Positions 15,826 through 35,539 of a stretch of 37,808 nucleotides of DNA are shown here, one piece after another. The position numbers and the translations under genes are program-made. The notes beneath the pieces were generated by a model. That model did not search any database, was not told where the DNA came from, and saw only the letters and a list, made by a program, of their open reading frames with translations. The DNA lies in contig JAAHGY010000008.1 in the NCBI GenBank assembly GCA_010672345.1, forward strand, positions 1 through 37,808, read 5' to 3'. Within the stretch, counting starts at the first letter, position 1; the number at the start of each line of letters is the position of its first letter. This stretch comes from Cyanothece sp. SIO2G6 (lineage in GTDB: Bacteria; Cyanobacteriota; Cyanobacteriia; CAKZMO01).

Positions 15826-16899
15826 TCACTTGCAGCACGAAATGTCGGTTACAGTCTTACCCAGATCATGGCTCTCCCAAGGATCGCCCATTCCTGCCAG
15901 CACCCGTCGGGGACCAGAAAAAGGCTGCCGTCCGTGGGTTGCTAACATATTGTCCAACAGCAACACGTCCCCCGCTTGCCAAGAAAACAAGATCGCTTCT
16001 GCGGTAAACGCTTGGTGAACCATTTCTAGCACATCAGGGGGAATGTCTGCCCCATTGCCATAGTAGGTGTTGCGGGGCACCCGATCAGCGGCAACACTCG
16101 CAAGCAAATTGGCTCGAACCGCAGGGTCCAATGTATTGATATTGAAGAGATGGGCCTGATTAAACCAAACAGCCTCTCTGGTGTGGGGATGGTGGGCGAT
16201 CGCCTGACACACTTGCCGCGTTTGTAACTGGTCACCGTCATGCCAGGTAAACTCAATCTGAGCTTGCTGACAGTAAGCTTCTACCTCAGATCGGTCCTCT
16301 GTTTGGAACACTTCCTGCCAGGGTAAATCCAGGCCACCGCCATAGTTACGGACGTACAATACCCCCTGTTGTTGAAATCGCGATCGCACGGCTGGATCAA
16401 TCCGCTCCAGAATACGGCGACTATCCGCGATCGGGGTTGCGCCTCCCTCAGCGGCAGGTTGCACACAATAGAAAGCAATTCTCAAGGGCCACTGACACGC
16501 ATAAGCCATCTCGTTGTGGAGAGGAATGGCACGATTGGCCGGATATTCCGTGGAGGTGTAGACGGAACCTTGCACTTGGGTACGAGGTGTGGAGCGGTAG
16601 GTATAGGGCATGGGTGGGTGGGCGATCGCCTGGATAAACTCACCAAAACCCTCGACCCCCGCCACCTGAAACCCACGAAACAGCACGCCGCCATGGTGGT
16701 GGAGCCACTGAGTAATCGTAGTCGGGTGGTGGGATATCCAATCCGTCAAACTTAATTCCGCTTGGGTCGGTTGCACCAGGAGGGGCAGGGCTGAATCGGG
16801 TTGCAGAGGGGTGGTCTGAACCAGAGTTTCGGTATTGAGGCTGACGCGCCGCCGTTGGCGCTTACCGGGAAAAGCAGTGGGTGATGTGGGTGATGGCAT
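15826..16899 (-). CDS. TauD/TfdA-family Fe(II)/2-oxoglutarate dioxygenase (SyrP-like amino-acyl beta-hydroxylase)
   Basis: VLFRGF..PLHNEMAY (HxE)..GGATPIAD..LDNMLATHGRQPF (distal His plus Arg); paralogue of the domain fused to NRPS-B. Confidence 0.85.
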   Translation of the reverse strand: MPSPTSPTAFPGKRQRRRVSLNTETLVQTTPLQPDSALPLLVQPTQAELSLTDWISHHPTTITQWLHHHGGVLFRGFQVAGVEGFGEFIQAIAHPPMPYTYRSTPRTQVQGSVYTSTEYPANRAIPLHNEMAYACQWPLRIAFYCVQPAAEGGATPIADSRRILERIDPAVRSRFQQQGVLYVRNYGGGLDLPWQEVFQTEDRSEVEAYCQQAQIEFTWHDGDQLQTRQVCQAIAHHPHTREAVWFNQAHLFNINTLDPAVRANLLASVAADRVPRNTYYGNGADIPPDVLEMVHQAFTAEAILFSWQAGDVLLLDNMLATHGRQPFSGPRRVLAGMGDPWESHDLGKTVTDISCCK

Positions 16900-16902
16900 A
16901 AG

Positions 16903-19900: not shown

Positions 19901-22900
19901 TGTTCTAGGGGCGATCGCGCCGCAGTAAATGGAGCCGCCAAACCAGAGCGATCGGGATTGGGCACATCAAGCGATTGCAATTTGGCCCGGTCAATTTTGC
20001 CGTTAGCGTTGAGGGGCATTTGCTTTAGCCAAACAAATGTCGCTGGCACCATGTAGTCCGGTAGTTGTGCCTGTAATTCCTGGCGCAAGTCTTGGACCGA
20101 GCAAGGTGGCTCAACGTCAAGCTTAATGTTGGCACTTACCCCCCTTAATCCCCCCTTGGTAAGGGGGGAAACCTTCGGAACTCCCTCCCCTTGGGAAGGG
20201 GAGGGCTGGGGTGGGGTAGACGGCATCACTGGGGCCAGATCTGAGTTAATCCCATCAGAGTTAGTCTCGGAGACGGTTTCAGCCTCAGCCTCAACCTCAA
20301 TCGAGTGCTGTGGTGTCAAATAGGCAACCAGTCGATTTTGTCCCGATTGGTCCGTTTGCACCATCACCACCGCATCTTGTACTTGGACAAGATGACGTAG
20401 TTTGGCTTCAATCTCACCCAGTTCGATCCGAAAACCTCGGATTTTTACTTGGTGATCAATCCGTCCCAGATACTCAAACGTACCATCAGGCAAATAACGA
20501 GCTAAATCACCCGTTTTGTAAAGACGACCCGAACCAAACGGATTGGCGATAAATCGTTCTGCCGTTAGCTTTGGCCGGTTGAGATAGCCCCGTGCTAGCC
20601 CCACACCACCAATGTACAGTTCACCTGGAATACCGATCGGTACAGGCTGTAGGGAACGATCGAGAATCATGCTTTGGAGATCCGGTAGCGCCCTGCCAAT
20701 GGGACTACTGGGCTGGTCTAAATCCAGTTTACTGAGCGGACGATAGGTCACATGCACTGTCGTCTCGGTGATGCCATACATGTTCACTAGTTGAGGCTGT
20801 TGGTCCCCATGTCGCTCAAACCAGGGCCGCAAGCTTTCGACTGCCAGCGCCTCGCCGCCAAAGATGACATAACGCAATTTTAAGGTGTCAGCCGGATAGT
20901 CAGCATCCACTTGAATCAACTGACTAAAGGCCGATGGAGTCTGATTGAGAACGGTAACCTGCTGTTCAACCAAGAGGTCATAAAATTCCTGGGAAGAGCG
21001 GCTGACCCAATAAGGCACCACCACCAGCCGTCCCCCATAGAGCAAGGCACCCCATAGTTCCCATACCGAAAAATCAAATGCATAGGAGTGGAAAAACGTC
21101 CAACAATCCTGATGATTAAAGTTGTACAGAGAGGCCGTCGTGTCAAATAGACGCACAACATTCTGGTGGGGAATCATCACGCCTTTGGGAATGCCTGTTG
21201 AACCGGAGGTGTAGATAATGTAAGCCAGGTTGTCAGCCGTGACTTCCGTATCCAAATTCTCTGACGGTAGCTGAGTAAGGGTCGGCCAGATTTCATCCAA
21301 ACAAACGATTGGAGCATCCAGGTGCGGCAATTCTTCCAGCAGGGCTGCTTGGGTCAGGAGCAGGGAAATATGGGCATCCTCAACCATAAATTGGAGCCGT
21401 GAGGGAGGATAGGTGGGGTCCAAAGGAACGTAGGCTCCGCCTGCTTTCAGAATTCCGAGTAACCCCACGATCATGTCGAGGGAGCGTTCTACACAAATCC
21501 CGACCAGAACCTCTGGGCCAACTCCCAAAGCCTGGAGGTGACGTGCCAGTTGATTTGCCCGTTGATTCAGTTCAGCGTAGGTGAGGTGATGGTGCTCAAA
21601 GGTAACGGCGATCGCCTCCGGATACTGCTCAACTTGGGCTTCAAAGCGCTGGTGCAGACAAACTAGAGCAGATGCTTGACCGTCTGGTTGCGGCTCTTGG
21701 ATCTGTCGCCAATCTCTGAGTTGGGCTGATTCGCCTGGGGTGAGTAAGGGAAGCCTGTCGAGGCAGGTGTCGGGATTGGCGGCAATGCCCGTCAGCAAAA
21801 CCTGGAAATGACCCAGCAGCCGCTCAATGGTGGCACTGTCAAACAGATCGCTGCTGTACTCCAGCGTGCCCTGCAAACAACCTTCAGATTCAACCACGGT
21901 TAACGTGAGGTCAAACTTGGCAGTGTTCCTGGCTAACTCCAGAGGCTGTAGGGTTAGCCCCGGTAAGCTGAGACCAGTATTGGGAGCATTTTGCAACACC
22001 AGCATTACTTGAAACAAGGGTGTATGGCTTAGGTCCCGTGGCAGTTGTAGGGTTTCAACCAGCTTTTCAAAGGGCAAGTCCTGATGGCTATAGGCTCCCA
22101 GGGCCACCTCACGCACCTGATTGAGTAGTTGCCGAAAACTGGAATCTCCGTCTAGCTGGCTCCGCAAGGCTAGGGTATTCATAAACAAACCAAGCAGCCC
22201 TTCGAGCGCCGCATGATTCCGATTGGCGATGGGTGAACCGACGGTAATGTCGGTCTGGCCTGTATAGCGATACAGCAGGGTTTTCAGGGCAGCTAGGAGC
22301 GTCATGAATAGGGTCGCATCAGCCGCTTTGCTCAGACTTTTAAGGGCTTGGGTTAACTCTGTGGATAAGGAAAAATTCTGGTGGCTGCCACGAAAGCGTT
22401 GTACGGCTGATCGGGGGCGATCGCTCGGCAACTGCAACACTGGAGGAATAGTGGCAAATTGTTGCTGCCAATAGTGAATTTGTTTTTGTAAATACTCTCC
22501 CTGGAGTCGCTGCCGTTGCCAGAGGGTAAAGTCTGCATATTGGAGGGGTAGGGACGGTAGCGGGTTGGGCAATCCTTGGGTGAAGGCGTGATAAAGCGTG
22601 GCGATCTCCCGCACCAACACCCCGGTAGACCAGACATCTGAAATGATGTGGTGTAACGTTACTAGCAAGACAAACTCCTGGTCTGCCAACGTTAGCAACG
22701 TCACCCTCAGCAACGGACCCTGGCGGAGATCAAAGGGTTGATGCACCTCTTTTTGGGCCAGCCGCTCCACTTCGTCCCAGGGCTGTTCGTCCAGGGCAGA
22801 CAAATCAATCTGCGTTAATGTCGTCAGTCCTTGGGAATGAATAATCTGTTGAGAATGCCCCCCAAACTCAGCACCCACACTGCCATTGTGGGGATTACTT

Positions 22901-23220
22901 TCGGTGCTGCTGGTATCGGCAATGGTCGTCCGCAGAATTTCATGGCGCTGCACTAAGGTTTGCAACACCTGCTCCAGAGCAGTAGTATCCAGCTTCCCTT
23001 GCAGATGTAGCCCAAAGGGAATGTTGTACAGCGGACTATCGGGTTCAAATTGGTACAAAAACCAAAGACGTTGCTGCGAAAACGATAGCGGTACTACTGC
23101 GTCAGGAGAACGGCGAGGAATGGTAGGCACTGGTGCGGTTCTGCCTTTGAGACGCTGAGCCAGGAGTGCTTGCTTAGCCGCAGAAAGTTTGGATTTGCGC
23201 GTTGATGTTGGGTCTGCCAT
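16903..23220 (-). CDS. NRPS-D: C-A(Thr)-T-E(degenerate)-C
   Basis: 2105 aa; motifs [99 protein letters not shown]. Confidence 0.95.
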   Translation of the reverse strand: MADPTSTRKSKLSAAKQALLAQRLKGRTAPVPTIPRRSPDAVVPLSFSQQRLWFLYQFEPDSPLYNIPFGLHLQGKLDTTALEQVLQTLVQRHEILRTTIADTSSTESNPHNGSVGAEFGGHSQQIIHSQGLTTLTQIDLSALDEQPWDEVERLAQKEVHQPFDLRQGPLLRVTLLTLADQEFVLLVTLHHIISDVWSTGVLVREIATLYHAFTQGLPNPLPSLPLQYADFTLWQRQRLQGEYLQKQIHYWQQQFATIPPVLQLPSDRPRSAVQRFRGSHQNFSLSTELTQALKSLSKAADATLFMTLLAALKTLLYRYTGQTDITVGSPIANRNHAALEGLLGLFMNTLALRSQLDGDSSFRQLLNQVREVALGAYSHQDLPFEKLVETLQLPRDLSHTPLFQVMLVLQNAPNTGLSLPGLTLQPLELARNTAKFDLTLTVVESEGCLQGTLEYSSDLFDSATIERLLGHFQVLLTGIAANPDTCLDRLPLLTPGESAQLRDWRQIQEPQPDGQASALVCLHQRFEAQVEQYPEAIAVTFEHHHLTYAELNQRANQLARHLQALGVGPEVLVGICVERSLDMIVGLLGILKAGGAYVPLDPTYPPSRLQFMVEDAHISLLLTQAALLEELPHLDAPIVCLDEIWPTLTQLPSENLDTEVTADNLAYIIYTSGSTGIPKGVMIPHQNVVRLFDTTASLYNFNHQDCWTFFHSYAFDFSVWELWGALLYGGRLVVVPYWVSRSSQEFYDLLVEQQVTVLNQTPSAFSQLIQVDADYPADTLKLRYVIFGGEALAVESLRPWFERHGDQQPQLVNMYGITETTVHVTYRPLSKLDLDQPSSPIGRALPDLQSMILDRSLQPVPIGIPGELYIGGVGLARGYLNRPKLTAERFIANPFGSGRLYKTGDLARYLPDGTFEYLGRIDHQVKIRGFRIELGEIEAKLRHLVQVQDAVVMVQTDQSGQNRLVAYLTPQHSIEVEAEAETVSETNSDGINSDLAPVMPSTPPQPSPSQGEGVPKVSPLTKGGLRGVSANIKLDVEPPCSVQDLRQELQAQLPDYMVPATFVWLKQMPLNANGKIDRAKLQSLDVPNPDRSGLAAPFTAARSPLEQQLATIWTQVLGVSTIGIDDNFFELGGDSILSLQIIAQANQAGLQLTPKQLFQHQTIRTLATVVETATTADQGTVVGPIPLTPIQRWFFDQPSTDYRQWYQTLELELRQPLTLENLQVIIHHLLNHHDGLRLSFQQQDATWTQHNDPALDHLPPGLVSQVTLSGVDRERVIATVINNFQNNLDLATGPLFQAILLEPTTQEDLQHLLLIAHQLVIDPTSWQILTGDIQTLLQQQLQGQTLRLSAKTHSLQQWCQRLQHQEYQDQPLEQDQPSIQPSLDSAGGETAAIASLTVSLDTENTQTLLQHVPLAYRTHTCEVLLTALVQTYAHCTQESTLAIDLAREGRNHLVEDMDVSRTIGWFETLCPIAFDLTDIDQPASAIKTIKEQHRQAARQADSSTASELLPTIYFSHSEHLSEHLNGDKEMETEAPQLRVIQATKLRQSQTYSLYIDSNIVAGQLRLCWTYQVSVYSPSTIETLAQFFLETLRSLMAHCLSPAAGGYTPSDFPLAQLDQATLDCLVARHPQIEDCYPLTPIQQGFLFHALYAPDDGMYVTQICCRLQGELDVAALQKTWQLISDRHPILRTAFVWQDLPEPLQVVQQQVVVPWQVHDWRSQTPAAQKTNLAALLEQDQRTGFQPHIAPLMRPTLVQVTDDTYDIIWSCHHILLDGWSMPMVIQEIFTLYENLTQGQQPTLSERRPYREYIAWLMAQDLSTAETFWTSLLEGFQTPTSLGYQKPQGALPNHEIQGFTLDSATATAIQTLAQQHRITPNTLVQATWAILLSQISGQTDIVFGATTAGRPPSLAGVDKMVGLFINTLPVRVKLIADMGIMTWMQALQTQRSEARQYEYSPLNQIQRWSELPAGIPLFESLIVFENYRVDAVGASTQTKLTMLSEATSRNNNYPLTLRVLPREEFVLQIMSDRTCFTADTTERWLHYLKALLQWLVAHPDASVGDWQAHLNSLDRQRQQQQAQTLSRTHLQKLRMTRRKTVRSQPSQEES
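16996..18333 (-). other. NRPS-D terminal condensation domain (DCL-like)
   Basis: YPLTPIQQGFLFH, RHPILRTAF, CHHILLDGWS; followed only by a basic tail (RMTRRKTVRSQP) and the stop. Confidence 0.8.
18346..19668 (-). other. NRPS-D epimerization-like domain, core motifs degenerate
   Basis: E1 TPIQRWFF is present, but E2 reads AHQLVIDPTSW (19243-19275), EGHGRE reads EGRNH, and the GxGYG and FNYLGQ motifs are absent. Confidence 0.75.
19696..19908 (-). other. NRPS-D thiolation domain (GGDSI type)
   Basis: [14 protein letters not shown]; Ppant Ser codon at 19816-19818. Confidence 0.85.
19966..21663 (-). other. NRPS-D adenylation domain, predicted Thr
   Basis: hand-extracted 10-residue code DFWNIGMVHK, which equals the Thr code as remembered from the Stachelhaus table. 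Confidence 0.8.
20135..20217. repeat. double-hairpin palindromic repeat element, copy B, inside the NRPS-D coding sequence
   Basis: CCCCCCTTGGTAAGGGGGG and CCCTCCCCTTGGGAAGGGGAGGG hairpins; reverse complement of copy A; translated in frame as TPPQPSPSQGEGVPKVSPLTKGGLRGVS. Confidence 0.8.
21751..23103 (-). other. NRPS-D condensation domain (LCL-like), HHIISDVWS
   Basis: C1 LSFSQQRLWFL; C3 at 22627-22653 with Val in place of the usual Gly. Confidence 0.8.
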
Positions 23221-23460: not shown

Positions 23461-26400
23461 CTACTCCTGCATCAATGCTTGAACTTCTTCATCTGTCATG
23501 GCCTCAATTTCTGCTAGGAGAGCAATTTCAACCACTTCAGCAATCTCTGCCACTGTATGGGCATCAAACAATTGGTGCAGAGGCAGTTCAACTTGAAAAA
23601 CTTCCCGTAAGCGCGATAATACCTGGGTGGCTAGCAGCGAATGGCCGCCTAAATCAAAGAAGTTATCGTTGACTCCAACGGTTTCCAGCCCTAGAACATC
23701 GGTCCAAATGGCGGCGATCGCTTCTTCGGTGGGATTGCGGGGAGCAACATACTCTTTGGAGAGATCCGGTCTAATCCGCTCCGGGGCTGGTAGAGCCTGT
23801 CGATCGACCTTGCCGTTGGGGGTCAGGGGCAGCGCAGACAAGGTAACAAATAGACTGGGAATCATGTAGTTGGGCAGTCGCTGTCGCAGAAACAAACGGA
23901 ACTCACCAGAATCTAGGGTTGTCTCGGTCGTTTTTTCAGGGTGAGGAACCGCAGGGTGAGGAACCACATAGGCCACCAGCACAGGGTTATTGGGGTCGTC
24001 CTCCCTAACAATGGTGCTTACCGCCTGGACATCGGGATGCTGGGCCAGTTGAGCCTCAATTTCCCCCAACTCGATGCGGAACCCGTGGAGTTTGACTTGT
24101 AAATCCACCCGCCGCAAAAACTCCAGATTCCCGTCGGGGTGACGACGAGCCAAGTCACCCGTGCGGTACATTCGCCCCCCAGATTGGTGGCTAAACGGGT
24201 CTGGTAGGAACCGCGCCGCTGTCAATCCTGGACGGTGCAGATAACCACGGGTCACTCCGTCACCGCCAATATAAACTTCCCCTGGAATGCCGATAGGAAC
24301 GGGTTGGAGGTCAGAGTCCAACAAGTAAACTTGGCTATTGGTCAGCGCTTGACCAATGGGGACGGTGGCGGCTGTTTGCTGGGCGGTGGTGCGAAAGGCA
24401 TGGGTCAGGGCACCAACAGTGGTTTCGGTGGGTCCGTAGTGGTTAAAGCTACGACAGTGGGGAGCCAATTGTTGGATCTGATCCATCAGCGACCAAGAGC
24501 AGGCTTCTCCGCCCAATACTAGCCGTTGACGGGGCAACATCTGCTCAGGCTGTGGAGTTTGGAGCAAGGCTCTCAGGTGGGATGGCACAATCTTGAGGCA
24601 GTCGATCGGGTGCTGTTGAGTATAGTCCACCAGCGCCTGGGCATCCCCAACCCGTTCAGCGGCAATCACATGCAGGGTTCCCCCCTGGCACAGACAGGGA
24701 AAGATCATGGTGTGGCCCAAATCAGCAGCCAAGGTTGACACGGTGGCGTAATGTCCCGCAGCAGGGAGGTCTAAGCGGTCAATGGCGCTGTCAACGTAGG
24801 AGAGCAACTGACGATGTTCAACGGCGACCCCTTTGGGCTGGCCCGTGGAGCCAGAGGTGTAGATAATGTAGGCCAGATTCGCCAGCATCACTGCACTGGT
24901 AGGATTGGCGCTGCTGTGTTGGGCGATGATGGGGCGATCGCCATCCAAACAAACCACCTGAGTCGTCACCGCCGTTTCCCGCAGTAATGACTGTCGGGTG
25001 ACTAAAATCTTGGCTTGGGCATCTTCCAGACGATAGCTGACTCCGTTGCTAGGCAGGGCAATGTCAATGGGCAGATAGGTGGCACCTGTTTTGAGGATGG
25101 CTAGCAGCGCAATTAATAAATCAAGCGATCGCTCCAAATAAATAGCCACAGGTACCTCTGGCCCAGCCCCTAATTGCTGGAGATGGTGAGCTAGTTGGTT
25201 AGCTTGGTGATTGAGTTCTTGGTAGGTGAGTTGTTGCGTTTCGTAAATCAAGGCAACCGCATTTGGAGTCCGTTCAACCTGCTGTTCAATGCGATGATGA
25301 ATGCAGGTGTTAGACACAATGTGGGCAGGGGTGGCGTTGGCCGTTGGTGTTAAAGCATCCGCTGCATCGGTTAACTTAAAGCTGCTGATGGAGGCTGTGG
25401 GCTGCTGACTCATGTGAGTGAGTAGAGACTGGAGTTGGTTACTGAGGGCGGCGATCGCCCCTGCACTGATCACGGTCTCGTTGTAGTGAAATTCCAACAC
25501 TAGTTGGTTATCCTGCTGGATTGCGGTTAACTTCAACTCTGGAGCTTGAGCATCGCTCCACGTTTGCTCAAGCCTGAACTCGACTCCGGCCACACTAACG
25601 GATGCAGGTTGGTGGATAAACTCAAAACTGATGGGCCATGGGACTGGGCGATCGCTCGGATAATAATCTTGCCATTCATTTAGTTCTTGCCAATTCTGTT
25701 CAACCTGACGGAGTAAAGCGGTAAAGGCGATCGCCCCAGAGATCTGACTGTGCAACGGTAACGTGTGGGTAAATGGCCCACAGACATCCACTAAGTCCTC
25801 ATCCTGACGACTTTCACAGGTGACTCCAAGCGTAATGTCAGATTGCTCTGTCTGTCGCCACAACACCACCAGCCAACTCGTTAGCAAAACTGTTTCCACA
25901 GCCGTATCCATTGCCAACAGAGTTTCAGCAAGGGGAGTCGCCAATTCCATTCGGTGGACGTTGGACCTAAATTGGTCCGGTTCAGCATCTCGATACCGTA
26001 AGGGTGGTAGCAAAGGCCCACGAGATGGTGATAGCTGTTGTTGCCAAAATGTTTGGGCAGCTTGACTCTCCTCATCAGCCTCTGTGAGCAACTGCTCTTG
26101 CCAGGTGGCAAACTGGACATACTGGACGGGTTCTTCTGTTAGCGATCGCCCCCCGTAACATTGGCTGATCTGGGCTAGCAGAATCTCACAGGTCTTGGTG
26201 TCAGCACAGAGTGCAGGTAGGGTCAGCAGTAGGATGTGCTTATTTTCACTCAGCTTAAACAGTGTTGCTTCAACCCAACTTGGTCCCGCTGGCTGAACCG
26301 ATTGCCGCTGCTTCGCTTGAAAGTTAGCCAAAGTGACAGCTTGTTCTGTGGCAGTGGCGGTCGCCAGATCAATCATCTGCCAATTAATGCTCCCCTGAGA

Positions 26401-26649
26401 TTGAATGGTTTGGAGGGGCAGCGTCAATCCTGGTGTTGACTGAAATGTTGTTCGCAGAATTTCATGGTGATTGACAACGGTTTGCAGCGCAGTTTGCAGC
26501 AGCGGCAAATCCAGGTTGCCTTGCAGCATTATGCGACACTGAGTTGTCAGAACCTGACCCAAGGCAGACTGTCGCCACCAAATCTGGCGTTGTTGAGAGG
26601 AGAGCTTAAAACCTGTAATCGTTGAGATCGTTGGGGATGACATAGGCAA
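23461..26649 (-). CDS. NRPS-C: His-less C-like (interface-type) domain-A(Asp)-T
   Basis: 1062 aa; LSSQQRQIWW, NHHEILRTTF, LPALCADTKT in place of HHxxxDG, LAYIIYTSGSTGQPKGV, YRTGDLARRHPDG, NGKVDR, FFDLGGHSLLA. Confidence 0.95.
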   Translation of the reverse strand: MPMSSPTISTITGFKLSSQQRQIWWRQSALGQVLTTQCRIMLQGNLDLPLLQTALQTVVNHHEILRTTFQSTPGLTLPLQTIQSQGSINWQMIDLATATATEQAVTLANFQAKQRQSVQPAGPSWVEATLFKLSENKHILLLTLPALCADTKTCEILLAQISQCYGGRSLTEEPVQYVQFATWQEQLLTEADEESQAAQTFWQQQLSPSRGPLLPPLRYRDAEPDQFRSNVHRMELATPLAETLLAMDTAVETVLLTSWLVVLWRQTEQSDITLGVTCESRQDEDLVDVCGPFTHTLPLHSQISGAIAFTALLRQVEQNWQELNEWQDYYPSDRPVPWPISFEFIHQPASVSVAGVEFRLEQTWSDAQAPELKLTAIQQDNQLVLEFHYNETVISAGAIAALSNQLQSLLTHMSQQPTASISSFKLTDAADALTPTANATPAHIVSNTCIHHRIEQQVERTPNAVALIYETQQLTYQELNHQANQLAHHLQQLGAGPEVPVAIYLERSLDLLIALLAILKTGATYLPIDIALPSNGVSYRLEDAQAKILVTRQSLLRETAVTTQVVCLDGDRPIIAQHSSANPTSAVMLANLAYIIYTSGSTGQPKGVAVEHRQLLSYVDSAIDRLDLPAAGHYATVSTLAADLGHTMIFPCLCQGGTLHVIAAERVGDAQALVDYTQQHPIDCLKIVPSHLRALLQTPQPEQMLPRQRLVLGGEACSWSLMDQIQQLAPHCRSFNHYGPTETTVGALTHAFRTTAQQTAATVPIGQALTNSQVYLLDSDLQPVPIGIPGEVYIGGDGVTRGYLHRPGLTAARFLPDPFSHQSGGRMYRTGDLARRHPDGNLEFLRRVDLQVKLHGFRIELGEIEAQLAQHPDVQAVSTIVREDDPNNPVLVAYVVPHPAVPHPEKTTETTLDSGEFRLFLRQRLPNYMIPSLFVTLSALPLTPNGKVDRQALPAPERIRPDLSKEYVAPRNPTEEAIAAIWTDVLGLETVGVNDNFFDLGGHSLLATQVLSRLREVFQVELPLHQLFDAHTVAEIAEVVEIALLAEIEAMTDEEVQALMQE
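23515..23727 (-). other. NRPS-C thiolation domain
   Basis: FFDLGGHSLLATQV; Ser codon at 23638-23640; acidic C-terminal tail EIEAMTDEEVQALMQE. Confidence 0.85.
23740..25302 (-). other. NRPS-C adenylation domain, predicted Asp
   Basis: hand-extracted code DLTKVGHVGK versus the remembered Asp code DLTKVGHIGK (9 of 10, Ile to Val). Confidence 0.75.
25345..26622 (-). other. NRPS-C N-terminal C-fold domain lacking catalytic histidines
   Basis: codons 26197-26217 read P-A-L-C-A-D-T where HHxxxDG is expected; C1, C2, C4 and C5-like motifs are retained. Confidence 0.8.
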
Positions 26650-26710
26650 TTGGCGTGAAACTAAAGTATCGGTAAAAAATAAGTTGGAGATGCGAAAGGA
26701 GCGCTAAAGC

Positions 26711-26742
26711 GGTGCGTTACGCTGGCGCTAACGGCACCCTAC
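26711..26742. repeat. GGTGCGTTACGC..GCGCTAACGGCACC hairpin repeat
   Basis: imperfect inverted repeat in the NRPS-B/NRPS-C spacer; same type as 15718-15746. Confidence 0.5.
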
Positions 26743-26767
26743 GTGATCGCTATTCTGTGCCACACCA

Positions 26768-29700
26768 TTAAGTTGCGGCAGATGTGACTGAATATATCTG
26801 GCTCAATTTCGCCTGAGTCATCATTTCACCCATCGCCACTGCAATCATGCGAGACCCCGTATAGGCATGTCGTCCGTGAGCCATCAGCATGTTGTCAAGC
26901 ATGATTATGTCTCCTTGCTGCCAGTCGAAGACCTGTTCCGCTTCGGTGTAGGCGGCTTGCAACCCATTGAGTACCTCCGGCTCAATGGTAGACCCATCGC
27001 CGTAATACACCTGACGCGGCAGTCGGTCTTCCCCAAAGAGCGAGAGAAGAGACTGCTGGGTAGGTTGATCCAGATAGGACAAATGGTGCAGTTGGAGTTG
27101 GTTAAAAACGACCCATTCCCCAGTCAGGGGATGACGGACCAAAGCCGGACGGATTTGACGGGTTTGTAAACCATCATCGGCCAGCCATTCCCACTCAACT
27201 CCGGCAGCTTGGCAACGTTGTTCCACTACAGCACGATCATCGGTGTGAAAAAAGTCTTGCCATGCCACATCCAGCCCTTTGATGTAATTGCGAACGTACA
27301 TGAGTTGCTTCTGGTGGAGGCGATCGCGCATCTCCGGGCTTAACAACTGATAGGCCTTGCGACAATCAACAATTGGGGTCGCACCGCCCTGTTTTGCAGG
27401 TTGCAAACAGCAGAACCAAATCTTCATCGGCCACTGTTGTAAATGGGAACTCTCGTTGTGAAACAGGATGGCCTTATCTTCGGGATAGGGGGTAGAACCG
27501 TAAACCTTATCACTGACTCCCGTGCGAGGCAGATCACCGTACTCTCCAAACAGATCGGGACAGATTGCTACCGCTGCCTGTTCAAAATCCTTAGCGGTTT
27601 CAATTGAGAATCCCCGAAAAAGCAATGCCCCATGTTTGAGCAACTTATCGTTCAACGCCGCTCGTTCGCCCTTGGCCCACAGGACTAAATTCACATCATG
27701 GTTGTTGGGCTGGACCGTCATCACCCCACAGGGAAGGGGCTGGATTGTCACCAGATCAGTGGTGGCCTGCTGCACTGCCTGTGGAGTCACTCGTTTGAAC
27801 TTCTTCCGTCGTTTTGCACCTTTTGCGCCTTTTGATCCAGCTTGCGGTTGTGTCACCATCGAGGTAAGAGTCTCCAAATCAATATCAGGTTGAGCCACCA
27901 CTTGACTCAGCAGGGTTTCAAATTGTTGGGCTAAGCGGCTGATGGTGTCCTGGGTAAAGCGATCGCCGCTATAGTTCCAGGAAACTGTAAGACCTGTAGG
28001 CGTTTCACTGACAAACAGCGCCAAATCAAACCGGGCTGAGTGGGTATTGAGCGTAACCGGAGTCAGGGTTAGATCTAGCAATTCAAAAGAATTGAAAGGA
28101 GCATTTTGCATCACAAACAACACCTGGACAAATGGAGTGACCCCACTACGGCGAGCATCAGGTTGTAGCGCTTGCACCAGTTGGGAAAAAGGTAGATCTT
28201 GGTGGGCATAACTCTCTAACGTTACCTCCCTGACCCGCTGGAGCAAGTCTTGGAAAGTGGGATTGCCTGATAAATCCGTGCGTAATACGAGCAAATTGAT
28301 AAAGAAGCCAATCAGTCCTTCAATTTCAGTGCGATTGCGATTGGCAATATCGGTCCCCACCATCATGTCAGGCTGACCACTGTGGACATACAAGAGGGCT
28401 TTGAACCCTGCTAATAGCGTCATAAACAAGGTAGTACCGTGGGATTGACTAAGCTGATGCAGCTTACTGGCGAGAGCTGCTGATAGATGGAATGTGGACA
28501 TATCTCCCTGGAAGCTGGGCGTTTCTGGAGGGGGATAGTCCGCCGGAAGCTTTAACACAGGCAACTGCCCGCCTAATTTTTGTCGCCAGTAAGCAAGCTG
28601 TTGGTCGAGCACCTCATCCGTCAGCCATTGTCGCTGCCACACAGCAAAGTCGGCATACTGAATCGGCAAGGATTCTAGCAAGGGGAGTGACGCGGTGGTG
28701 TAGGCGGTATAGAGAGTACTCAACTCATGCACCAGCACCCCTGTAGACCAAATATCCGAAATGATGTGATGGATAGTCCATAGCAAGATGTACTCTTGGT
28801 CCTGTAGCTGTAAAACACTAGCGCGGAATAATGGGCCTTGGGTGATGTCAAAGACTTCCTGGTCGGCAGCAGTTGCCAACCGCTGAACCTCTTCAGGTTG
28901 CTGGGTTGGAGATAGCGATCGCAAATCCACTACAGGTAACGTTGTTGTCAAAGTTGGAGCAATCTGCTGGATGGGTTGACCTTGGTGCAGGATAAATGTG
29001 GTTCTGAGAATTTCGTGACGATCGACAATGGTTTGCAAACTGTGATGGAGCGGATCAAGGTGGAGGTTTCCGGTTAAGCGCACCGCCACGGTTTGGTTAT
29101 ACACCGCACTGTCAGGGTAGAGTTGTTCCAAAAACCACAGTCGTTCCTGGGCAAAGGATAAGGGGAGGGGCTGATGGCGATCGCATCGAGTAATCATATC
29201 CTGTTGCGTCTGACGCTGTTCCCCGACCCAGGTAGCTAATTCAGCTACGGTAGGAGTTTCAAACAGTTGTCGGACCGAGATATTCACATGGAAAATCTGT
29301 CGCATCCGAGCAATCACCTGGGTGGCGAGGAGGGAATGACCGCCCAACTCAAAGAAGTTATCGTAAATCCCCACTTGCTCCACAGGTGAGGTCAGGATTT
29401 TGGCAAACAAGGCTGCGATCAGTTTTTGCGGTTCGGTTTGGGGCGCAACAAACTCGGTTGTGCGCTCATAATTAGGTTCAGGTAAGGCTTTGCGATCGAC
29501 TTTGCCATTAGGGGTCAGGGGCAACGCTGGCAAACACATGACCACATTGGGAACCATGTAATCGGGCAGATGTTGTCTGAGGTGTTGCTTGAGCTGGAGT
29601 TTGAGCTGCTGAGTATCGGTATCGCTGACCACGTAGGCGACCAATCGCTCCTGGTCTGCCTTGTCCTTGTGCACCACCACCGTACACTGCCGCACCTGTT

Positions 29701-32700
29701 CATGGCGATCGAGCACCGCTTCAATTTCCCCTAGCTCGATCCGAAACCCCCGCAGTTTGACTTGATAATCGGCCCGACCCAAATAATCAATGGTGCCATC
29801 GGGCAAGTACCGGGCTAAGTCACCTGTGCGATAGAGGCGATCGCCCGGTATTTGTCCAAAGGGATTGGGCACAAACCGTTCAGCGGTCAGACTTGGACGT
29901 TTGTAGTATCCCCGCGCCAATCGAACACCTCCAAGGTACAGATCTCCCGGCACACCCACAGGTACAGGATTCAACAATTCATCCAAAATATAGACTTGGG
30001 TATTGGTCAACGGTCGCCCCACGGTAATCGGGGTGCTGTCTGTAATTTCTTGCTGAGTGGCCCACACTGTCACCTCGGTAGGACCGTAAAAATTCCTCAG
30101 CGTGGCGCATCGTTCCCGCAAATCCCTGGCTAAATCCGGGGTCAGGGCTTCACCCCCACAAATGATCTGGAGTTGGGTACTGCCGGACCAGTTGGCATCC
30201 AGTAGCATTCGCCAGGTGGCAGGGGTCGCCTGCATCAGCGTCACCCCACGGGTATTGATCTGTGCCGCTAAACGTAAGCCATCCTGGGCTACCTCCCTGG
30301 ATACGAGCACCAATTGCGCCCCCACCACCAGAGGCAACCATAGCTCCAAGACCGACATGTCGAAGGAAAAAGATGCTGCCGACAGGATGGTGTCTGCCGA
30401 GGTGATGCCTAAATCCTGGCGTTGAGAGTGGATTAAATCCACAACGGCATTGTGGGTAATTTGCACCCCTTTGGGCCGACCTGTGGAACCGGATGTGTAG
30501 ATCATGTAGGCCAAGTTATCCGCCTGGGTTGGAGAAGTGGGAGCAGTCACAACCGCTGGAATGGGCTGATCCAAACAAACTGTCTTGCCTCGGTAATTGG
30601 GGAGCAAATCCTGGAGCCAGGATTGACTAATCAAGACTTCCACATTGGCATCATCCACCATAAAGGCCAGACGCGGCGGCGGATAGTTGGGGTCTAGGGG
30701 AATGTAAGCGCTCCCAGCTTTGAGAATCCCCAGCAGACCCACCATCATGTCCACAGACCGTTCTACGCAGATCCCCACTAAGCTGTCAGGGCCAATCCCC
30801 ATGCTTTGCAGGTAGTGAGCCAGACAATCTGCTTTGGTATTCAGTTCCTGATACGTGAGCTGATCGGCTTCAAAGGCCACCGCCACCGCCTCTGGGGTTT
30901 GTTGAGCTTGACGGTCGATCAGGGTGTGGAGACAGAGATCTGGATGAGGTGCTGCTGTGGCGTTCCACTCTGCAAACTGCCGTTGTTCTGCTGTCGTGAG
31001 CAGGGGCATTGTGGCGATCGCCTGCGAATCATCAGTCACCATTGCCGTGAGCAGCACCTCAAAATGGTGGGCCATGCGACCAATGGTTTCTGGCTCAAAC
31101 AGATCGGTGCTATGTTCCCACTCACAGATCAACCCCTGATCACTTTCTTCTACAGAAAGGAGCAGATCACATTTGGCTGTAACGGATGCGGCGGGCAGGG
31201 GAGTCACGGTCATATTGGGCAGTTCCAGGGGCGATCGCGGCATGTTTTGCAACATAAACATCACCTGGAACAGGGGTGAATGGGCCAAACTGCGCTGGGG
31301 TTGTAGTGCCTCAACCACTTGCTCAAAGGGAACGTCTTTGTGGCTATAAGCCTCCAGGGTCATTTGTTTAACTCGGTGGAGAAAATCCTTGACCGAGGCT
31401 GTTTCATTGATAGGCAACCGTAACACCAAGGTATTCACAAACAAGCCAATCAAGGATTCCAACTCAGGCTGCTGCCGATTGGCAATACTCGTTCCCACAA
31501 CGATGTCCCGCTGCTTGCTGTAGCGATAAAGCAGCAGTTGGAATGCTGCCAGTAACGTCATGAATAGCGTCACCTGATGTTTTCGAGCCAGCACTTTCAC
31601 CTGTTCGCCCAGTGCCTTGGGCAACATGACCACCTGGGTCTGCCCACGAAAGCTCTGCACCGCTGGTCGAGGATGATCCGTGGGCAATTCTAGTAGCGTC
31701 GGCGCACCCGCTAGTTGCTGCCGCCAATAGTCAAGCTGGGTTGCCAGCACCTCTCCCTGCAACCACTGGCGCTGCCACTGGGCATAGTCGGCATATTGAA
31801 TTGGCAGTTCCGATAGGGGTTGATTCTCGCTGTCGGTGCGGTAAAGCGCGATCAGTTCCCGGATAAAGATGCTGATAGACCAGCCATCGCTAATGATGTG
31901 ATGCATGGTCACCACCAGTATGGCAACATCCGCTTCGAGATGAACCAACGCTAACCGCAATAATGGTCCGGTGGTCAGATCAAACGGCTGCTTGACCTCA
32001 TGGTTGAGCCAATCTGAGACAGAGACATTTAGCCTAGAGACATTTAGCCCAGAGACACTCAGGTCAGAGACACTTAGCCCAGAGACATTCAGCCCAGAGA
32101 CACTTAGGTCAAAGGCATGAAGCGATCGCACAGGAATGTCCATTGTCGGATGAATGCGCTGGATGGCAGTACCATTCACCACGGGAAATGTCGTCCGCAA
32201 AGTCTCATGGCGACAAACAATGGCATTGACAGCTTGCTGCAACTTGGCAACGTCAAAGGTACCTTCTACCCGCACCACACCCGGCATGTTGTAAGTCCCT
32301 GATACCCCTTCCAACTGGGCCAGGAACCAGAGTCGTTCTTGAGCATAGGATAGGGGAATTGGCGCATCATCCCGTGGTGTTGGGGTAATCGGAGGCATGT
32401 CCAGCCCTCCAGCAGTTTCTGAATCTAGGGCCGCATCGATACCAGCCACGGTTGGCGTTTCAAATAGCACTTTGAGCGAAATCTCGGTTTCTAGGGCTTG
32501 ACGCAGGGACGTGATCAGCCGCATTGCCAGCAGGGAATGTCCCCCCAAATCAAAGAAATTATCATGGATACCAAGGGTCTCAGCAGGTACAGAGAGCACG
32601 TCAGCAAAGAGACTGGCAATCAGGGTTTGTCGCTCGGTTTGAGGGGCAACAAATGTCTCGGTGGGACTGAAGGCGGGAGCAGGTAGGGCTTTGCGATCCA

Positions 32701-35539
32701 CTTTGCCGTTGGGCATCAGAGGCATTTCGTCCAAGGGCACAATTACCATCGGCACCATATAGTCAGGCAGGTTTTGTCTGAGTTCGACTTTCAGATCTAC
32801 CTCAGCAATCTCACCACTCACCACGATATAGGCAACCAGTCTTTGATCACCTGTTTCATCCTCCCGCACCAGCACTACACCTGCGCTGACTTGTTCATGT
32901 TGCAGCAGAGCCGCTTCAATCTCGCCCATCTCAATGCGGAATCCCCGGATTTTGACCTGGTGGTCAATCCGGCCCAGATATTCGATCGCACCATCAGGTC
33001 GATACCGCGCCCGATCCCCCGTTTTATAGAGATGGCCTGGGCCGAAGGGGTTGGTGATAAATTTCTCAGCCGTTAATTCTGGGCGATTCAAATAGCCTTT
33101 TGCGAGGCCCACACCACCCATATGTAATTCGCCCAATGCCCCAATGGGAACCTGCTGCAAATTCGCATCCAAAATGTAAGCCTGGGCATTAGCGATGGGT
33201 CGCCCGATGGGAATGCTTGGAGCTGATTCATCAGACTGGCAGGTCCAATAGGTGGAATTGATACAGGCTTCAGTGGGACCGTACAGATTATGTAAACAGG
33301 CATCAATCTGGCTATGGAATTCCTGCGATAGGTCAACCGCTAGGGCTTCCCCGCCACAAAACACATGTTTGAGGGATTGGCATTGGCTAAAGTCTGGATG
33401 ACTCACCAAAACCCTCAGTAGCGACGGCACCAATTGGAGGTAAGTAATGTTCTGCTCTCGGATCGTTTGGATTAAGTAATCGCCATCCAGGAATCTGCCG
33501 GGTCGAGCAAAAATGAGTTGTCCCCCTGCCAGCAACGGCGCGTAAAACTCCCACACAGAGGCATCAAAACTAAAGTTAGTACGCTGAAGAAACTTGTCTG
33601 TTGCAGCTAATGGAAACGTTTGTTGTATCCACTGCATCTGGTTGCTGATAGCTCGGTGGGGAACCATCACCCCTTTGGGTCTACCCGTGGAGCCAGAGGT
33701 GAAAATCACATAGGCGGGATGGTCTGCCCTTATCTTTGTGGCTGGATTTTGGAGCGATCGCTCAGCAATTGTCTCCCAATTCCCATCTAAACAAATAACC
33801 TGAGTATCAACCCCTGGCCCGGTGGTAATTTCTGGTAGCCGCTCCAAAAGATGAGTTTGCGTCAGTAACACGGGCACTTGAGTATCCTGGAGCATGAACT
33901 GAATCCGAGCAGCAGGATAATCCGGATCAATCGGCACATAAGCTCCACCCGCTTTGAGCACCGCCAACAATCCCACCACCATTTCTGGAGAGCGCTCCAC
34001 ACAAATCCCCACTAAAATATCTGCTCCCACGCCTAACGCTTGCAGATAATGGGCAAGCTGATTGGCCCGGATATTTAGGGCTTGATAGGTGAGTTGAGTG
34101 TCCCCTGCGACAACAGCGATCGCATCCGGCGTTTGCTTGACCTGCTGTTCAAACTGCTGATGAATCCAAGTCTCGTGGGGATAAGCTACGGTAGTTTGAT
34201 TCCACTCGGTCAGCAGTTGTTGTTCTGCATCGGTAAGCAAAGGTAGGGTGGCGATCGCCCTTGAACTATCCTGCACAATTGCCCGGAGCAGAATCTCAAA
34301 ATGTTGGCCCAGTCGCTCAACGGCATCGGGAGGGAAGCGATCGCCGTCCCCATCAAAATTGAGCGATAACTGCTCACCTGGAATTACCACCAAATTCAGG
34401 GGATAGTTTGTACGCTCACTGGCGATGATCGTTTGAATGGGTAAGGTTTGCTGATATCCACGCAGAGCTTGGGCAATGGGGTAGTTTTCAACCACTACCA
34501 GGGTATTAAACAGGGTATGGGATACCTCGCTCAGTCGCTGAATGTCTACTAGCGGCATGTAGCTGTAACCTTGCAGATCCTGGAGATCGTGCTGGAGTTG
34601 TTTGAGCAAGGTGTCCCCGGAGCAATCTGGAGACAAGGTTAACCGAAGAGGCAGGGTATTGATAAACAAACCCACCATATCCTCAACCCCATCTAGAGGA
34701 ATGTCTCGCCCGGAAACAGTGATACCAAACACCACATCGGCTTCACCACTGTAGCGACTGAGTAAGATGCCCCAAACCCCATAAATGAGGGTGGCTAAAC
34801 TCATGCGCTGCTGTCGTGCCCATTGCTGGATTTCCTCCGTTAACTCAGCCGATAGCAGATGTTCCCACCGATGAAAGTCGGTGGCTGGACCTGTCTCCTG
34901 TTCTTGCAGCGGCAACGGGGTTGGGGTTTGAAATCCAGATAGCTTTTGTCGCCAATAGGTTTCAACCGTTTCCCGTTCCTGCTGTTGCAGCCAAGCGACA
35001 TAGGCTTGATAGGGTTTGCGGCGAGGCGATCGGGCTTGGCCTTGATAGTTGGCGAGTAAATCCTGCATTAACAGGGGCAGGCTCCAACCATCCAGCAACG
35101 CATGGTGATGGGTCCAAATCAACTGGTGCTGATTCGGAGTCAGTGTAATCAGGGTACAGCGCATCAACGGAGCTTTGGTGGTTTCAAAGACCGTTTGTTG
35201 ATCCCGCCGCAGCCACTCCTGTAGTTTTTGTGGTTGCTGGTCTGCCGCGATATGTTGCCAATCATGCTGCTGCCAAGGCAACTCCACTTGTTTGAGCACA
35301 ACCTGTAACGTTTGAGTGCGCTGCCACACAAAGCAGGTACGCAATACATCGTGGGAGTTAACTAATTGTTGCCATGCCTGTCGTAGCGCCTCTGGATCAA
35401 TGGTCCCGTCTAACACAATCTGAAGCTGTTCAACATAAATACCCGATTCAGCCGCATAGGTACTATGAAACAACATGCCCTGCTGCATGGGCGTGGCTGG
35501 ATAGATGGTTTGAATGTTGCGACTCAATGTGGTGTTCAT
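26768..35539 (-). CDS. NRPS-B: C-A-T-C-A-T-C-TauD
   Basis: 2923 aa; HHALLDGWS, AYVIFTSGSTGRPKGV, FFDLGGHSLLA, MHHIISDGWS, AYMIYTSGSTGRPKGV, FFELGGHSLLA, IHHIISDIWS, then LLFRGF..FHNESSH..MAHGRHAY. Confidence 0.95.
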   Translation of the reverse strand: MNTTLSRNIQTIYPATPMQQGMLFHSTYAAESGIYVEQLQIVLDGTIDPEALRQAWQQLVNSHDVLRTCFVWQRTQTLQVVLKQVELPWQQHDWQHIAADQQPQKLQEWLRRDQQTVFETTKAPLMRCTLITLTPNQHQLIWTHHHALLDGWSLPLLMQDLLANYQGQARSPRRKPYQAYVAWLQQQERETVETYWRQKLSGFQTPTPLPLQEQETGPATDFHRWEHLLSAELTEEIQQWARQQRMSLATLIYGVWGILLSRYSGEADVVFGITVSGRDIPLDGVEDMVGLFINTLPLRLTLSPDCSGDTLLKQLQHDLQDLQGYSYMPLVDIQRLSEVSHTLFNTLVVVENYPIAQALRGYQQTLPIQTIIASERTNYPLNLVVIPGEQLSLNFDGDGDRFPPDAVERLGQHFEILLRAIVQDSSRAIATLPLLTDAEQQLLTEWNQTTVAYPHETWIHQQFEQQVKQTPDAIAVVAGDTQLTYQALNIRANQLAHYLQALGVGADILVGICVERSPEMVVGLLAVLKAGGAYVPIDPDYPAARIQFMLQDTQVPVLLTQTHLLERLPEITTGPGVDTQVICLDGNWETIAERSLQNPATKIRADHPAYVIFTSGSTGRPKGVMVPHRAISNQMQWIQQTFPLAATDKFLQRTNFSFDASVWEFYAPLLAGGQLIFARPGRFLDGDYLIQTIREQNITYLQLVPSLLRVLVSHPDFSQCQSLKHVFCGGEALAVDLSQEFHSQIDACLHNLYGPTEACINSTYWTCQSDESAPSIPIGRPIANAQAYILDANLQQVPIGALGELHMGGVGLAKGYLNRPELTAEKFITNPFGPGHLYKTGDRARYRPDGAIEYLGRIDHQVKIRGFRIEMGEIEAALLQHEQVSAGVVLVREDETGDQRLVAYIVVSGEIAEVDLKVELRQNLPDYMVPMVIVPLDEMPLMPNGKVDRKALPAPAFSPTETFVAPQTERQTLIASLFADVLSVPAETLGIHDNFFDLGGHSLLAMRLITSLRQALETEISLKVLFETPTVAGIDAALDSETAGGLDMPPITPTPRDDAPIPLSYAQERLWFLAQLEGVSGTYNMPGVVRVEGTFDVAKLQQAVNAIVCRHETLRTTFPVVNGTAIQRIHPTMDIPVRSLHAFDLSVSGLNVSGLSVSDLSVSGLNVSRLNVSVSDWLNHEVKQPFDLTTGPLLRLALVHLEADVAILVVTMHHIISDGWSISIFIRELIALYRTDSENQPLSELPIQYADYAQWQRQWLQGEVLATQLDYWRQQLAGAPTLLELPTDHPRPAVQSFRGQTQVVMLPKALGEQVKVLARKHQVTLFMTLLAAFQLLLYRYSKQRDIVVGTSIANRQQPELESLIGLFVNTLVLRLPINETASVKDFLHRVKQMTLEAYSHKDVPFEQVVEALQPQRSLAHSPLFQVMFMLQNMPRSPLELPNMTVTPLPAASVTAKCDLLLSVEESDQGLICEWEHSTDLFEPETIGRMAHHFEVLLTAMVTDDSQAIATMPLLTTAEQRQFAEWNATAAPHPDLCLHTLIDRQAQQTPEAVAVAFEADQLTYQELNTKADCLAHYLQSMGIGPDSLVGICVERSVDMMVGLLGILKAGSAYIPLDPNYPPPRLAFMVDDANVEVLISQSWLQDLLPNYRGKTVCLDQPIPAVVTAPTSPTQADNLAYMIYTSGSTGRPKGVQITHNAVVDLIHSQRQDLGITSADTILSAASFSFDMSVLELWLPLVVGAQLVLVSREVAQDGLRLAAQINTRGVTLMQATPATWRMLLDANWSGSTQLQIICGGEALTPDLARDLRERCATLRNFYGPTEVTVWATQQEITDSTPITVGRPLTNTQVYILDELLNPVPVGVPGDLYLGGVRLARGYYKRPSLTAERFVPNPFGQIPGDRLYRTGDLARYLPDGTIDYLGRADYQVKLRGFRIELGEIEAVLDRHEQVRQCTVVVHKDKADQERLVAYVVSDTDTQQLKLQLKQHLRQHLPDYMVPNVVMCLPALPLTPNGKVDRKALPEPNYERTTEFVAPQTEPQKLIAALFAKILTSPVEQVGIYDNFFELGGHSLLATQVIARMRQIFHVNISVRQLFETPTVAELATWVGEQRQTQQDMITRCDRHQPLPLSFAQERLWFLEQLYPDSAVYNQTVAVRLTGNLHLDPLHHSLQTIVDRHEILRTTFILHQGQPIQQIAPTLTTTLPVVDLRSLSPTQQPEEVQRLATAADQEVFDITQGPLFRASVLQLQDQEYILLWTIHHIISDIWSTGVLVHELSTLYTAYTTASLPLLESLPIQYADFAVWQRQWLTDEVLDQQLAYWRQKLGGQLPVLKLPADYPPPETPSFQGDMSTFHLSAALASKLHQLSQSHGTTLFMTLLAGFKALLYVHSGQPDMMVGTDIANRNRTEIEGLIGFFINLLVLRTDLSGNPTFQDLLQRVREVTLESYAHQDLPFSQLVQALQPDARRSGVTPFVQVLFVMQNAPFNSFELLDLTLTPVTLNTHSARFDLALFVSETPTGLTVSWNYSGDRFTQDTISRLAQQFETLLSQVVAQPDIDLETLTSMVTQPQAGSKGAKGAKRRKKFKRVTPQAVQQATTDLVTIQPLPCGVMTVQPNNHDVNLVLWAKGERAALNDKLLKHGALLFRGFSIETAKDFEQAAVAICPDLFGEYGDLPRTGVSDKVYGSTPYPEDKAILFHNESSHLQQWPMKIWFCCLQPAKQGGATPIVDCRKAYQLLSPEMRDRLHQKQLMYVRNYIKGLDVAWQDFFHTDDRAVVEQRCQAAGVEWEWLADDGLQTRQIRPALVRHPLTGEWVVFNQLQLHHLSYLDQPTQQSLLSLFGEDRLPRQVYYGDGSTIEPEVLNGLQAAYTEAEQVFDWQQGDIIMLDNMLMAHGRHAYTGSRMIAVAMGEMMTQAKLSQIYSVTSAAT
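26795..27772 (-). other. NRPS-B C-terminal fused TauD-type Fe(II)/2OG hydroxylase domain
   Basis: basic linker GSKGAKGAKRRKKFKRV, then ALLFRGF, FHNESSH (27443-27460), GGATPIVD, LDNMLMAHGRHAY. Confidence 0.85.
27860..29188 (-). other. NRPS-B C domain 3 (LCL-like), HHIISDIWS
   Basis: LSFAQERLWFL, RHEILRTTF, IHHIISDIWS (28745-28774) with Ile in place of the usual Gly. Confidence 0.8.
29225..29422 (-). other. NRPS-B T domain 2
   Basis: FFELGGHSLLATQV; Ser codon at 29333-29335. Confidence 0.85.
29435..30937 (-). other. NRPS-B A domain 2, Gly-like (weak)
   Basis: hand-extracted code DMLQIGFVWK versus the remembered Gly code DILQLGLIWK (6 identical, the rest conservative). Confidence 0.45.
30980..32386 (-). 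other. NRPS-B C domain 2 (LCL-like) with repeat insertion
   Basis: LSYAQERLWFL, RHETLRTTF, MHHIISDGWS (31877-31906). Confidence 0.8.
32021..32110. repeat. 15-bp x6 in-frame tandem repeat (AGAGACAYTYAGSYC)
   Basis: units at 32021, 32036, 32051, 32066, 32081 and 32096; encode the pentapeptide reiteration within FDLSVSGLNVSGLSVSDLSVSGLNVSRLNVSVSDW. Confidence 0.9.
32420..32626 (-). other. NRPS-B T domain 1
   Basis: FFDLGGHSLLAMRL; Ser codon at 32534-32536. Confidence 0.85.
32645..34162 (-). other. NRPS-B A domain 1, Gln-like
   Basis: hand-extracted code DAWQFGLINK versus the remembered Gln code DAWQFGLIDK (9 of 10). Confidence 0.6.
34220..35518 (-). other. NRPS-B C domain 1 (DCL-like)
   Basis: IYPATPMQQGMLFH, HDVLRTCF, HHHALLDGWS (35087-35110); follows the E domain of the upstream protein. 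Confidence 0.8.

Follow-up and report, generated by a model that had tools for sequence, protein, structure and literature searches.

A probable β-hydroxy-aspartate unit with a histidine-less interface-type domain in a cyanochelin-like gene cluster of Cyanothece sp. SIO2G6

The stretch of DNA analyzed here, hereafter the window, comprises 37,808 nucleotides of contig JAAHGY010000008.1 from Cyanothece sp. SIO2G6 (assembly GCA_010672345.1). It contains a nonribosomal peptide synthetase (NRPS) gene cluster, and our subject is the boundary between two of its synthetases, NRPS-B and NRPS-C (25345-29188), where a TauD-type hydroxylase meets a condensation-like domain lacking the active-site histidines. 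The NRPS and hydroxylase genes of the cluster, with all their features given below, are on the minus strand. Based on Pfam, and denoting condensation, adenylation, thiolation, and epimerization domains as C, A, T, and E, the genes are NRPS-A (35656-37800, truncated at the edge of the window; ...A-T-E), NRPS-B (26768-35539, 2923 aa; C-A-T-C-A-T-C-TauD), NRPS-C (23461-26649, 1062 aa; C-like-A-T), NRPS-D (16903-23220, 2105 aa; C-A-T-E-C), a homologue of CcsJ, and a free-standing TauD hydroxylase (15826-16899, 357 aa), a homologue of CcsK with 58.5% identity to it.

In NRPS-B, Pfam identifies three Condensation, two AMP-binding, and two PP-binding domains and a C-terminal TauD domain (aa 2616-2902), and it finds no A or T domain after the last C domain. 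The two A domains have the specificity codes DAWQFGLINK (Gln-like) and DMLQIG-VWK (Gly-like). The third condensation domain, C3, which thus has no A or T domain of its own, occupies 27833-29203 according to Pfam and hidden Markov model (HMM) envelopes and has kept its catalytic motif HHIISDIWS (28745-28771). The first C domain of NRPS-D has nearly the same motif (22627-22653), both reading HHIISD(I/V)WS, with Ile or Val after the motif Asp, where most C domains carry Gly. The TauD-type Fe(II)/2-oxoglutarate hydroxylase domain (26771-27850; PF02668, E 3e-44) extends to the NRPS-B stop codon (26768-26770). In the alignment with At3g21360/9yut, its HxE is found at 27449-27463, the distal His at 26867-26884, and the Arg at 26837-26857; FHNES, AHGRH, and GSRMI match the ligand positions, and the HxE...H triad and the 2-oxoglutarate Arg are intact.

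Between C3 and the TauD core lies a K/R-rich stretch, GSKGAKGAKRRKKFKRV (27788-27838), which the earlier note on this DNA, made from the sequence alone, had described as a basic linker. The stretch itself is there, but its role as a fusion linker was rejected, since an equivalent is found at the N-termini of free TauDs (e.g., GKRQRRRVS at 16840-16866); hence, it is to be regarded as part of the hydroxylase. The motif (RRKKFKRV or KRQRRRVS) is found ahead of the TauD core in cyanobacterial hydroxylases of both the fused and the free kind, and it may be a conserved recognition element.

NRPS-C follows NRPS-B after an intergenic gap of 118 nt (26650-26767), and this break between the two proteins is kept in all homologous loci. 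Translation of NRPS-C probably begins with the ATG at 26643 (M3), as the homologues begin with MSSP. The N-terminal domain of NRPS-C (25342-26649) was characterized by Pfam, HMM alignment, structure prediction, and a tree. In the HMM alignment of 321 C-superfamily domains, PALCADT (26197-26217, aa 145-151 of NRPS-C) stands column for column at the place of HHxxxDG in the other C-superfamily domains of the window, and neither the motif histidines nor a shifted HHxxxDG motif was found in this domain. The Condensation profile PF00668 matches aa 16-329 (E 1.4e-47, partial profile). Foldseek superimposes the AlphaFold2 model of aa 1-436 (pLDDT 84.6, pTM 0.83) on C domains of known structure (TM 0.73-0.84, approximately 450 columns). 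This confident model and its superposition therefore indicate a complete C fold and not a fragment.

The adenylation domain of NRPS-C (23809-25287) has the ten specificity residues DLTKVGHVGK, as read from the alignment; they differ from the canonical Asp code, DLTKVGHIGK, by one conservative change. Behind this domain comes a thiolation domain (23533-23721, Pfam and motif) with the phosphopantetheine serine in GGHSL (23635-23649). The T domains ahead of E domains in the window have GGDSI, whereas GGHSL is what one normally finds ahead of a C domain that accepts an L residue, which agrees with retention of the L configuration. Thus, the main elements that the earlier note had read from the letters, namely, the terminal C-TauD of NRPS-B without a following A or T, the full-length C fold with PALCADT for HHxxxDG, and the Asp pocket with a T domain behind it, are all borne out by profile, alignment, and model.

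To place the domain in its family, we scanned GTDB species genomes, obtained 264 relatives of it, and fetched 79 loci (loci bear L numbers below). Plasmid records contributed five further loci, all proteobacterial, from Janthinobacterium, Variovorax, Eleftheria, Azospirillum, and Bradyrhizobium; when the Janthinobacterium interface domain served as the query for homologues, only three matches were obtained. The fetched loci come from many cyanobacteria, Acidobacteriota, Chloroflexota, Actinomycetota, Nitrospirales, Verrucomicrobiota, and other metagenome-assembled genomes (MAGs). Together with the plasmid loci, they yielded 100 His-less domains with the consensus S-L-P-A-L-C-A-D-x-x-T, both motif histidines being lost in all members. 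Since the motif is kept in 100 homologous domains, PALCADT is no chance deviation. The His-less domain is at the N-terminus of its open reading frame (ORF) in 99 of the 100 cases, the lone exception, from Variovorax, being an artifact of stop-to-stop ORF calling. A TauD is situated less than 600 nt upstream of 78 His-less domains, fused to the preceding NRPS in 30 cases and free in 48. The A domains behind them have the Asp code DLTK(I/V)GH(V/I)GK in approximately 45 cases and DLTKVGEVGK in six.

A neighbor-joining tree was built from 172 dereplicated C-superfamily domains. It unites all His-less domains, including the proteobacterial ones and those of CcsI and CcsL, in one clade (bootstrap 71/100), with the LCL, DCL, E, and Cyc domains that occur in the same loci standing outside. 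Within this clade, the domain from the window groups with those of L006 and L007 (bootstrap 100). Among 94 TauD sequences compared in a second tree, the hydroxylase domain of NRPS-B forms a clade with the TauD of CcsFGH (bootstrap 92; 61.8% identity), all members of which are fused and are all followed by an interface domain and A(Asp), while the free TauD groups with CcsK (bootstrap 99). On this evidence, the fused and free hydroxylases are orthologues of the CcsFGH TauD and of CcsK, respectively. The placements in the two trees are in line with the earlier note, which had proposed them as checks of its reading. No NCBIfam model is specific to the interface domain or to these hydroxylases; antiSMASH 8 includes interface-domain profiles.

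Among the plasmid records searched by tblastn, the best match lies on plasmid 2 of Leptolyngbya sp. NIES-3755 (AP017310.1). The cyanochelin family, to which its product belongs, is said to have been first described by Galica et al. in 2021. This plasmid carries the cluster for cyanochelin B, acyl-thiazoline-Phe-Gly-βOHAsp-Ser-βOHAsp-ethanolamine (PMC12628792). In the window, genes and domains are arranged in the same way, C-A-T-C-A(Gly)-T-C-TauD, I-A(Asp)-T (I for interface), C-A-T-E-C, and free TauD, and the proteins are collinear over their full length, with identities of 45.6% for NRPS-B and CcsFGH, 50.7% for NRPS-C and CcsI, 47-48% for NRPS-D and CcsJ, and 58.5% for the free TauD and CcsK. 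Hence, it contains collinear orthologues of the Ccs synthetases and two β-hydroxylases, as does a cyanochelin-type biosynthetic gene cluster. The differences are a Gln-like code for Phe and a Thr code for Ser, a decayed E domain in NRPS-D that is not decayed in CcsJ, and the lack, behind the free TauD in the window, of homologues of CcsL (I-A-T-E) and CcsM (C-A-T-TD). Furthermore, unlike Leptolyngbya NIES-3755, the window comes from a marine lineage that is uncultured and represented by MAGs alone. The cyanobacterial hydroxylase clades, designated CyanoBH_Asp1 and CyanoBH_Asp2 by Reitz and co-workers, are separate from the proteobacterial ones (PMC12971057).

Interface (I) domains with an integrated Asp β-hydroxylase (IbetaH_Asp) were reportedly described by Reitz, Hardy, Suk, Bouvet, and Butler in 2019 (PNAS) for proteobacterial siderophore NRPSs (e.g., those of cupriachelin and of potashchelin, PtcB/PtcC), and the earlier note had pointed to this system. 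The five proteobacterial loci indeed have the same arrangement: one NRPS ends with C-TauD, and a His-less xxLxAD domain opens a separate protein after it, this protein being an I-A-T of 983-1023 aa in Janthinobacterium, Eleftheria, and Azospirillum. The Janthinobacterium locus also encodes FhuF, a TonB-dependent siderophore receptor, and an ornithine/lysine N-oxygenase family protein. The window shares with these loci the order C-TauD followed by a His-less domain-A(Asp)-T protein, the xxLxAD motif, and the clade in the tree, yet its domain is only about 26% identical to the proteobacterial ones. Free TauDs also adjoin the interface domain in the cyanobacterial loci examined (48/100), whereas in the Janthinobacterium locus the free TauD is followed by an ordinary C domain that contains HH. 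In potashchelin, the string is FAAL-ACP-C-TauD-C-A(Asp)-PCP (FAAL, fatty acyl-AMP ligase; ACP and PCP, acyl and peptidyl carrier proteins), with TauD being the C-terminus of PtcB (PMC7100376). The earlier note had emphasized the spread of the unit over two polypeptides; the spread is real, but it is the norm, given that 99 of the 100 His-less domains start a polypeptide and that the proteobacterial loci and potashchelin are split in the same way.

The nearest functional analogue with a structure is the X-domain of glycopeptide NRPSs (PDB 4TX2/4TX3, 6M7L), a C fold, inactive in condensation, which brings oxygenases acting in trans to a substrate bound on its carrier. The teicoplanin X-domain is the top PDB sequence match of the NRPS-C N-terminal domain (E 3.4e-21; Foldseek TM 0.74-0.77), but its lead over ordinary C domains is marginal, and these fit the model equally well. 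In contrast to the window domain, the X-domain closes the final module, and the oxygenases that it recruits are P450s; neither sequence nor structure comparison gave a sign of specific common ancestry of the two.

Taken together, the domain architecture and motifs, the C fold, the Asp code, the collinearity with the cyanochelin B genes, the clade shared with proteobacterial siderophore loci, and the position of the fused TauD make it very probable that the region is the β-hydroxy-aspartate unit of a cyanochelin-family siderophore assembly line, combining an interface scaffold with on-line hydroxylation of Asp, much as the earlier note had supposed. What was observed is the domain order, the motifs, the fold, the Asp code, the orthology, and the co-occurrence across the family; we infer that TauD touches the interface domain, that hydroxylation takes place on the carrier-bound residue, and how this residue is configured. 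The A domain of NRPS-C would adenylate L-Asp and load it onto the T domain of the same protein. The His-less domain would perform no chemistry and would instead dock the TauD of NRPS-B and present the carrier-bound Asp, C-3 of which TauD would hydroxylate using Fe(II), 2-oxoglutarate, and O2. C3 of NRPS-B could then condense the upstream chain, predicted from the codes as ...Gln-like-Gly, in trans onto the β-OH-Asp-S-T, and the first C domain of NRPS-D would take the β-OH-Asp chain from NRPS-C and extend it with Thr. Judging from the orthology with CcsFGH and CcsI, the β-OH-Asp should be L-threo (2S,3S): this configuration was demonstrated by nuclear magnetic resonance and Marfey analysis at the corresponding position of cyanochelin B, and the CcsFGH TauD is the enzyme assigned to its L-threo-β-OH-Asp4 (PMC12628792).

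Several observations weigh against this interpretation. For 18 of the 100 homologues the fetched locus contains no TauD, although several of these loci are at contig ends, and no siderophore transporter gene is present within the window. The bootstrap of the whole interface clade is only 71, and its proteobacterial comparators are five siderophore-type loci, without a named published interface domain such as that of cupriachelin. Finally, in the accessible literature, nothing beyond citations was found as biochemical or structural evidence of contact between TauD and the interface domain; that this domain brings the hydroxylase and the T-bound residue into position is a proposal there too.

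The His-less domain might be seen as a decaying relic of a C domain, retained only to space the A domain structurally and taking no part in hydroxylation. Pfam covers only profile positions 7-329 of 456 in it, and, with locus L005 (about 80% nucleotide identity) as the reference, the ratio of nonsynonymous to synonymous substitution rates (dN/dS) is higher for the interface domain (0.17) than for C3 (0.11), the A domain (0.10), and both TauDs (0.09). However, a value of 0.17 is far from neutral, and it points to purifying selection on the interface domain, if somewhat weaker than that on its catalytic neighbors. Moreover, the domain is modeled as a complete and confident C fold, the S-L-P-A-L-C-A-D-x-x-T signature itself is kept across Cyanobacteriota, Acidobacteriota, Chloroflexota, and others, and the co-occurrence with TauD is tight (78/100). 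Hence, we consider a mere relic quite improbable.

The timing of hydroxylation is not fixed by the sequence, and free Asp or the finished peptide, rather than T-bound Asp, could be the substrate. This, too, we hold to be a slim prospect, as the A domain of NRPS-C has the code for unmodified Asp, and physical fusion places the hydroxylase on the assembly line right beside the Asp module. Related TauD-type enzymes, e.g., SyrP, act on carrier-bound Asp. The study of potashchelin likewise assumes hydroxylation of the carrier-bound residue (PMC7100376). The remaining possibility, that the His-less domain is an active non-canonical condensation domain forming the peptide bond while C3 of NRPS-B serves otherwise, e.g., for docking, is no more probable: some members of the C superfamily with altered motifs can function, but both histidines are gone in every member of the family, HHxxxDG is kept in 26 of the 28 C domains fused ahead of TauD, and the domain count is already balanced, since C3 keeps HHxxxD intact but lacks an acceptor module of its own.

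The arrangement on which the proposed β-hydroxy-aspartate unit is built has thus already been described, in the cyanochelins, and it is usual for it to be split across two proteins. The region reveals no new mechanism; what it adds is a cyanochelin-like cluster, uncharacterized and probably marine, whose predicted peptide (Gln-like, Gly, β-OH-Asp, Thr) is a different one. The survey is of modest use in that it finds the interface-type domain nearly always opening its own polypeptide, its signature kept, its occurrence well beyond Proteobacteria and Cyanobacteria, and its TauD partners both fused and free; these points could guide experiments on the presumed docking of the hydroxylase.

A second hydroxylation unit is represented in the window by the terminal C domain of NRPS-D, which has no A-T, and the free TauD next to it (15826-17922). 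The partner expected from cyanochelin B, a CcsL-type I-A(Asp)-T-E, and the release module are absent from the window, and no pseudogene remnants of CcsL or CcsM were found 3' of the free TauD. In general, the window contains no second I-A(Asp)-T module, release domain, or lipid-loading genes, its upstream part being cut by the edge. NRPS-A was considered as a displaced CcsL-type module and rejected, as its identity to the CcsL-type proteins of relatives is 46-47%, compared with 58-72% for true orthologues. In L088-L091, genes for I-A-T-E, C, an aminotransferase, and C-A-T-TD are found near the free TauD. The placement of the CcsL- and CcsM-type genes varies: they are convergent in L088, directly adjacent in L023, and 3 kb downstream in L089-L091, past small genes that include an acyltransferase in all three loci and ExbD in L090 and L091. 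The cluster is either rearranged or incomplete here. In principle, NRPS-C could serve both C/TauD pairs, its Asp module being used twice and possibly installing two β-OH-Asp residues of different C-3 configuration, but we give this little credence; it is more likely that the missing I-A(Asp)-T module is encoded elsewhere in the genome, as in L088-L091.

The domains of NRPS-D are C (HHIISDVWS), A (Thr code DFWNIGMV-K), T, an E-like domain (AHQLVIDP), and C (CHHILLDGWS). In the E-like domain (17955-19650; motif at 19246-19275), AHQLVIDP replaces HHxxxDG and REGRNH replaces EGHGRE. Such decay was also observed in L005, L007, L088, and L089 of the marine clade but not in CcsJ or in Myxacorys (L023). 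The decayed domain is followed by a C domain of the DCL type, and its dN/dS is 0.23.

The survey also revealed His-less domains ahead of other A-domain codes. In about 30 mainly Nostocales-type loci (L018, L028-L031, L033, L036, L040, L042, L043, L047, L052-L054, L060, and others), the interface-type domain is preceded by a free TauD and followed by an A domain with the code DSALIAEVWK, which we take to resemble His codes. The adjacency of these His-like codes to interface-type domains and free TauDs suggests that β-hydroxy-histidine units may be widespread in cyanobacteria. A few interface-type domains precede unusual codes, e.g., SSRDRIMGIK. Outside cyanobacteria, LPALCAD interface-type domains were seen in MAGs of Acidobacteriota (many of them Pyrinomonadaceae), Chloroflexota, Actinomycetota, Nitrospirales, and Verrucomicrobiota (L013, L025, L026, L032, L037, L046, L050, L051, L056, L062, L069, and others); several of these loci have no TauD in the fetched stretch.

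On the 3' side of the free TauD, the window encodes an eCIS_core/Tox-HDC protein, Uma2 nucleases, LeuRS, and RimK, none of which is related to peptide synthesis. The first of these, a 651-aa ORF on the plus strand (13745-15700), combines an eCIS_core domain, a Tox-HDC toxin domain, and a run of acidic repeats (…EEDEELQMQP…), and it is located past the free TauD exactly at the break of synteny with the relatives. Two genes for putative endonucleases of the Uma2 family and one DUF29 gene, at 705-1271 (minus strand), 4136-4627 (plus strand), and 12564-13355 (minus strand), flank the housekeeping genes of LeuRS and RimK beside the cluster; genes of the Uma2 and DUF29 types are frequent in cyanobacterial genomes.

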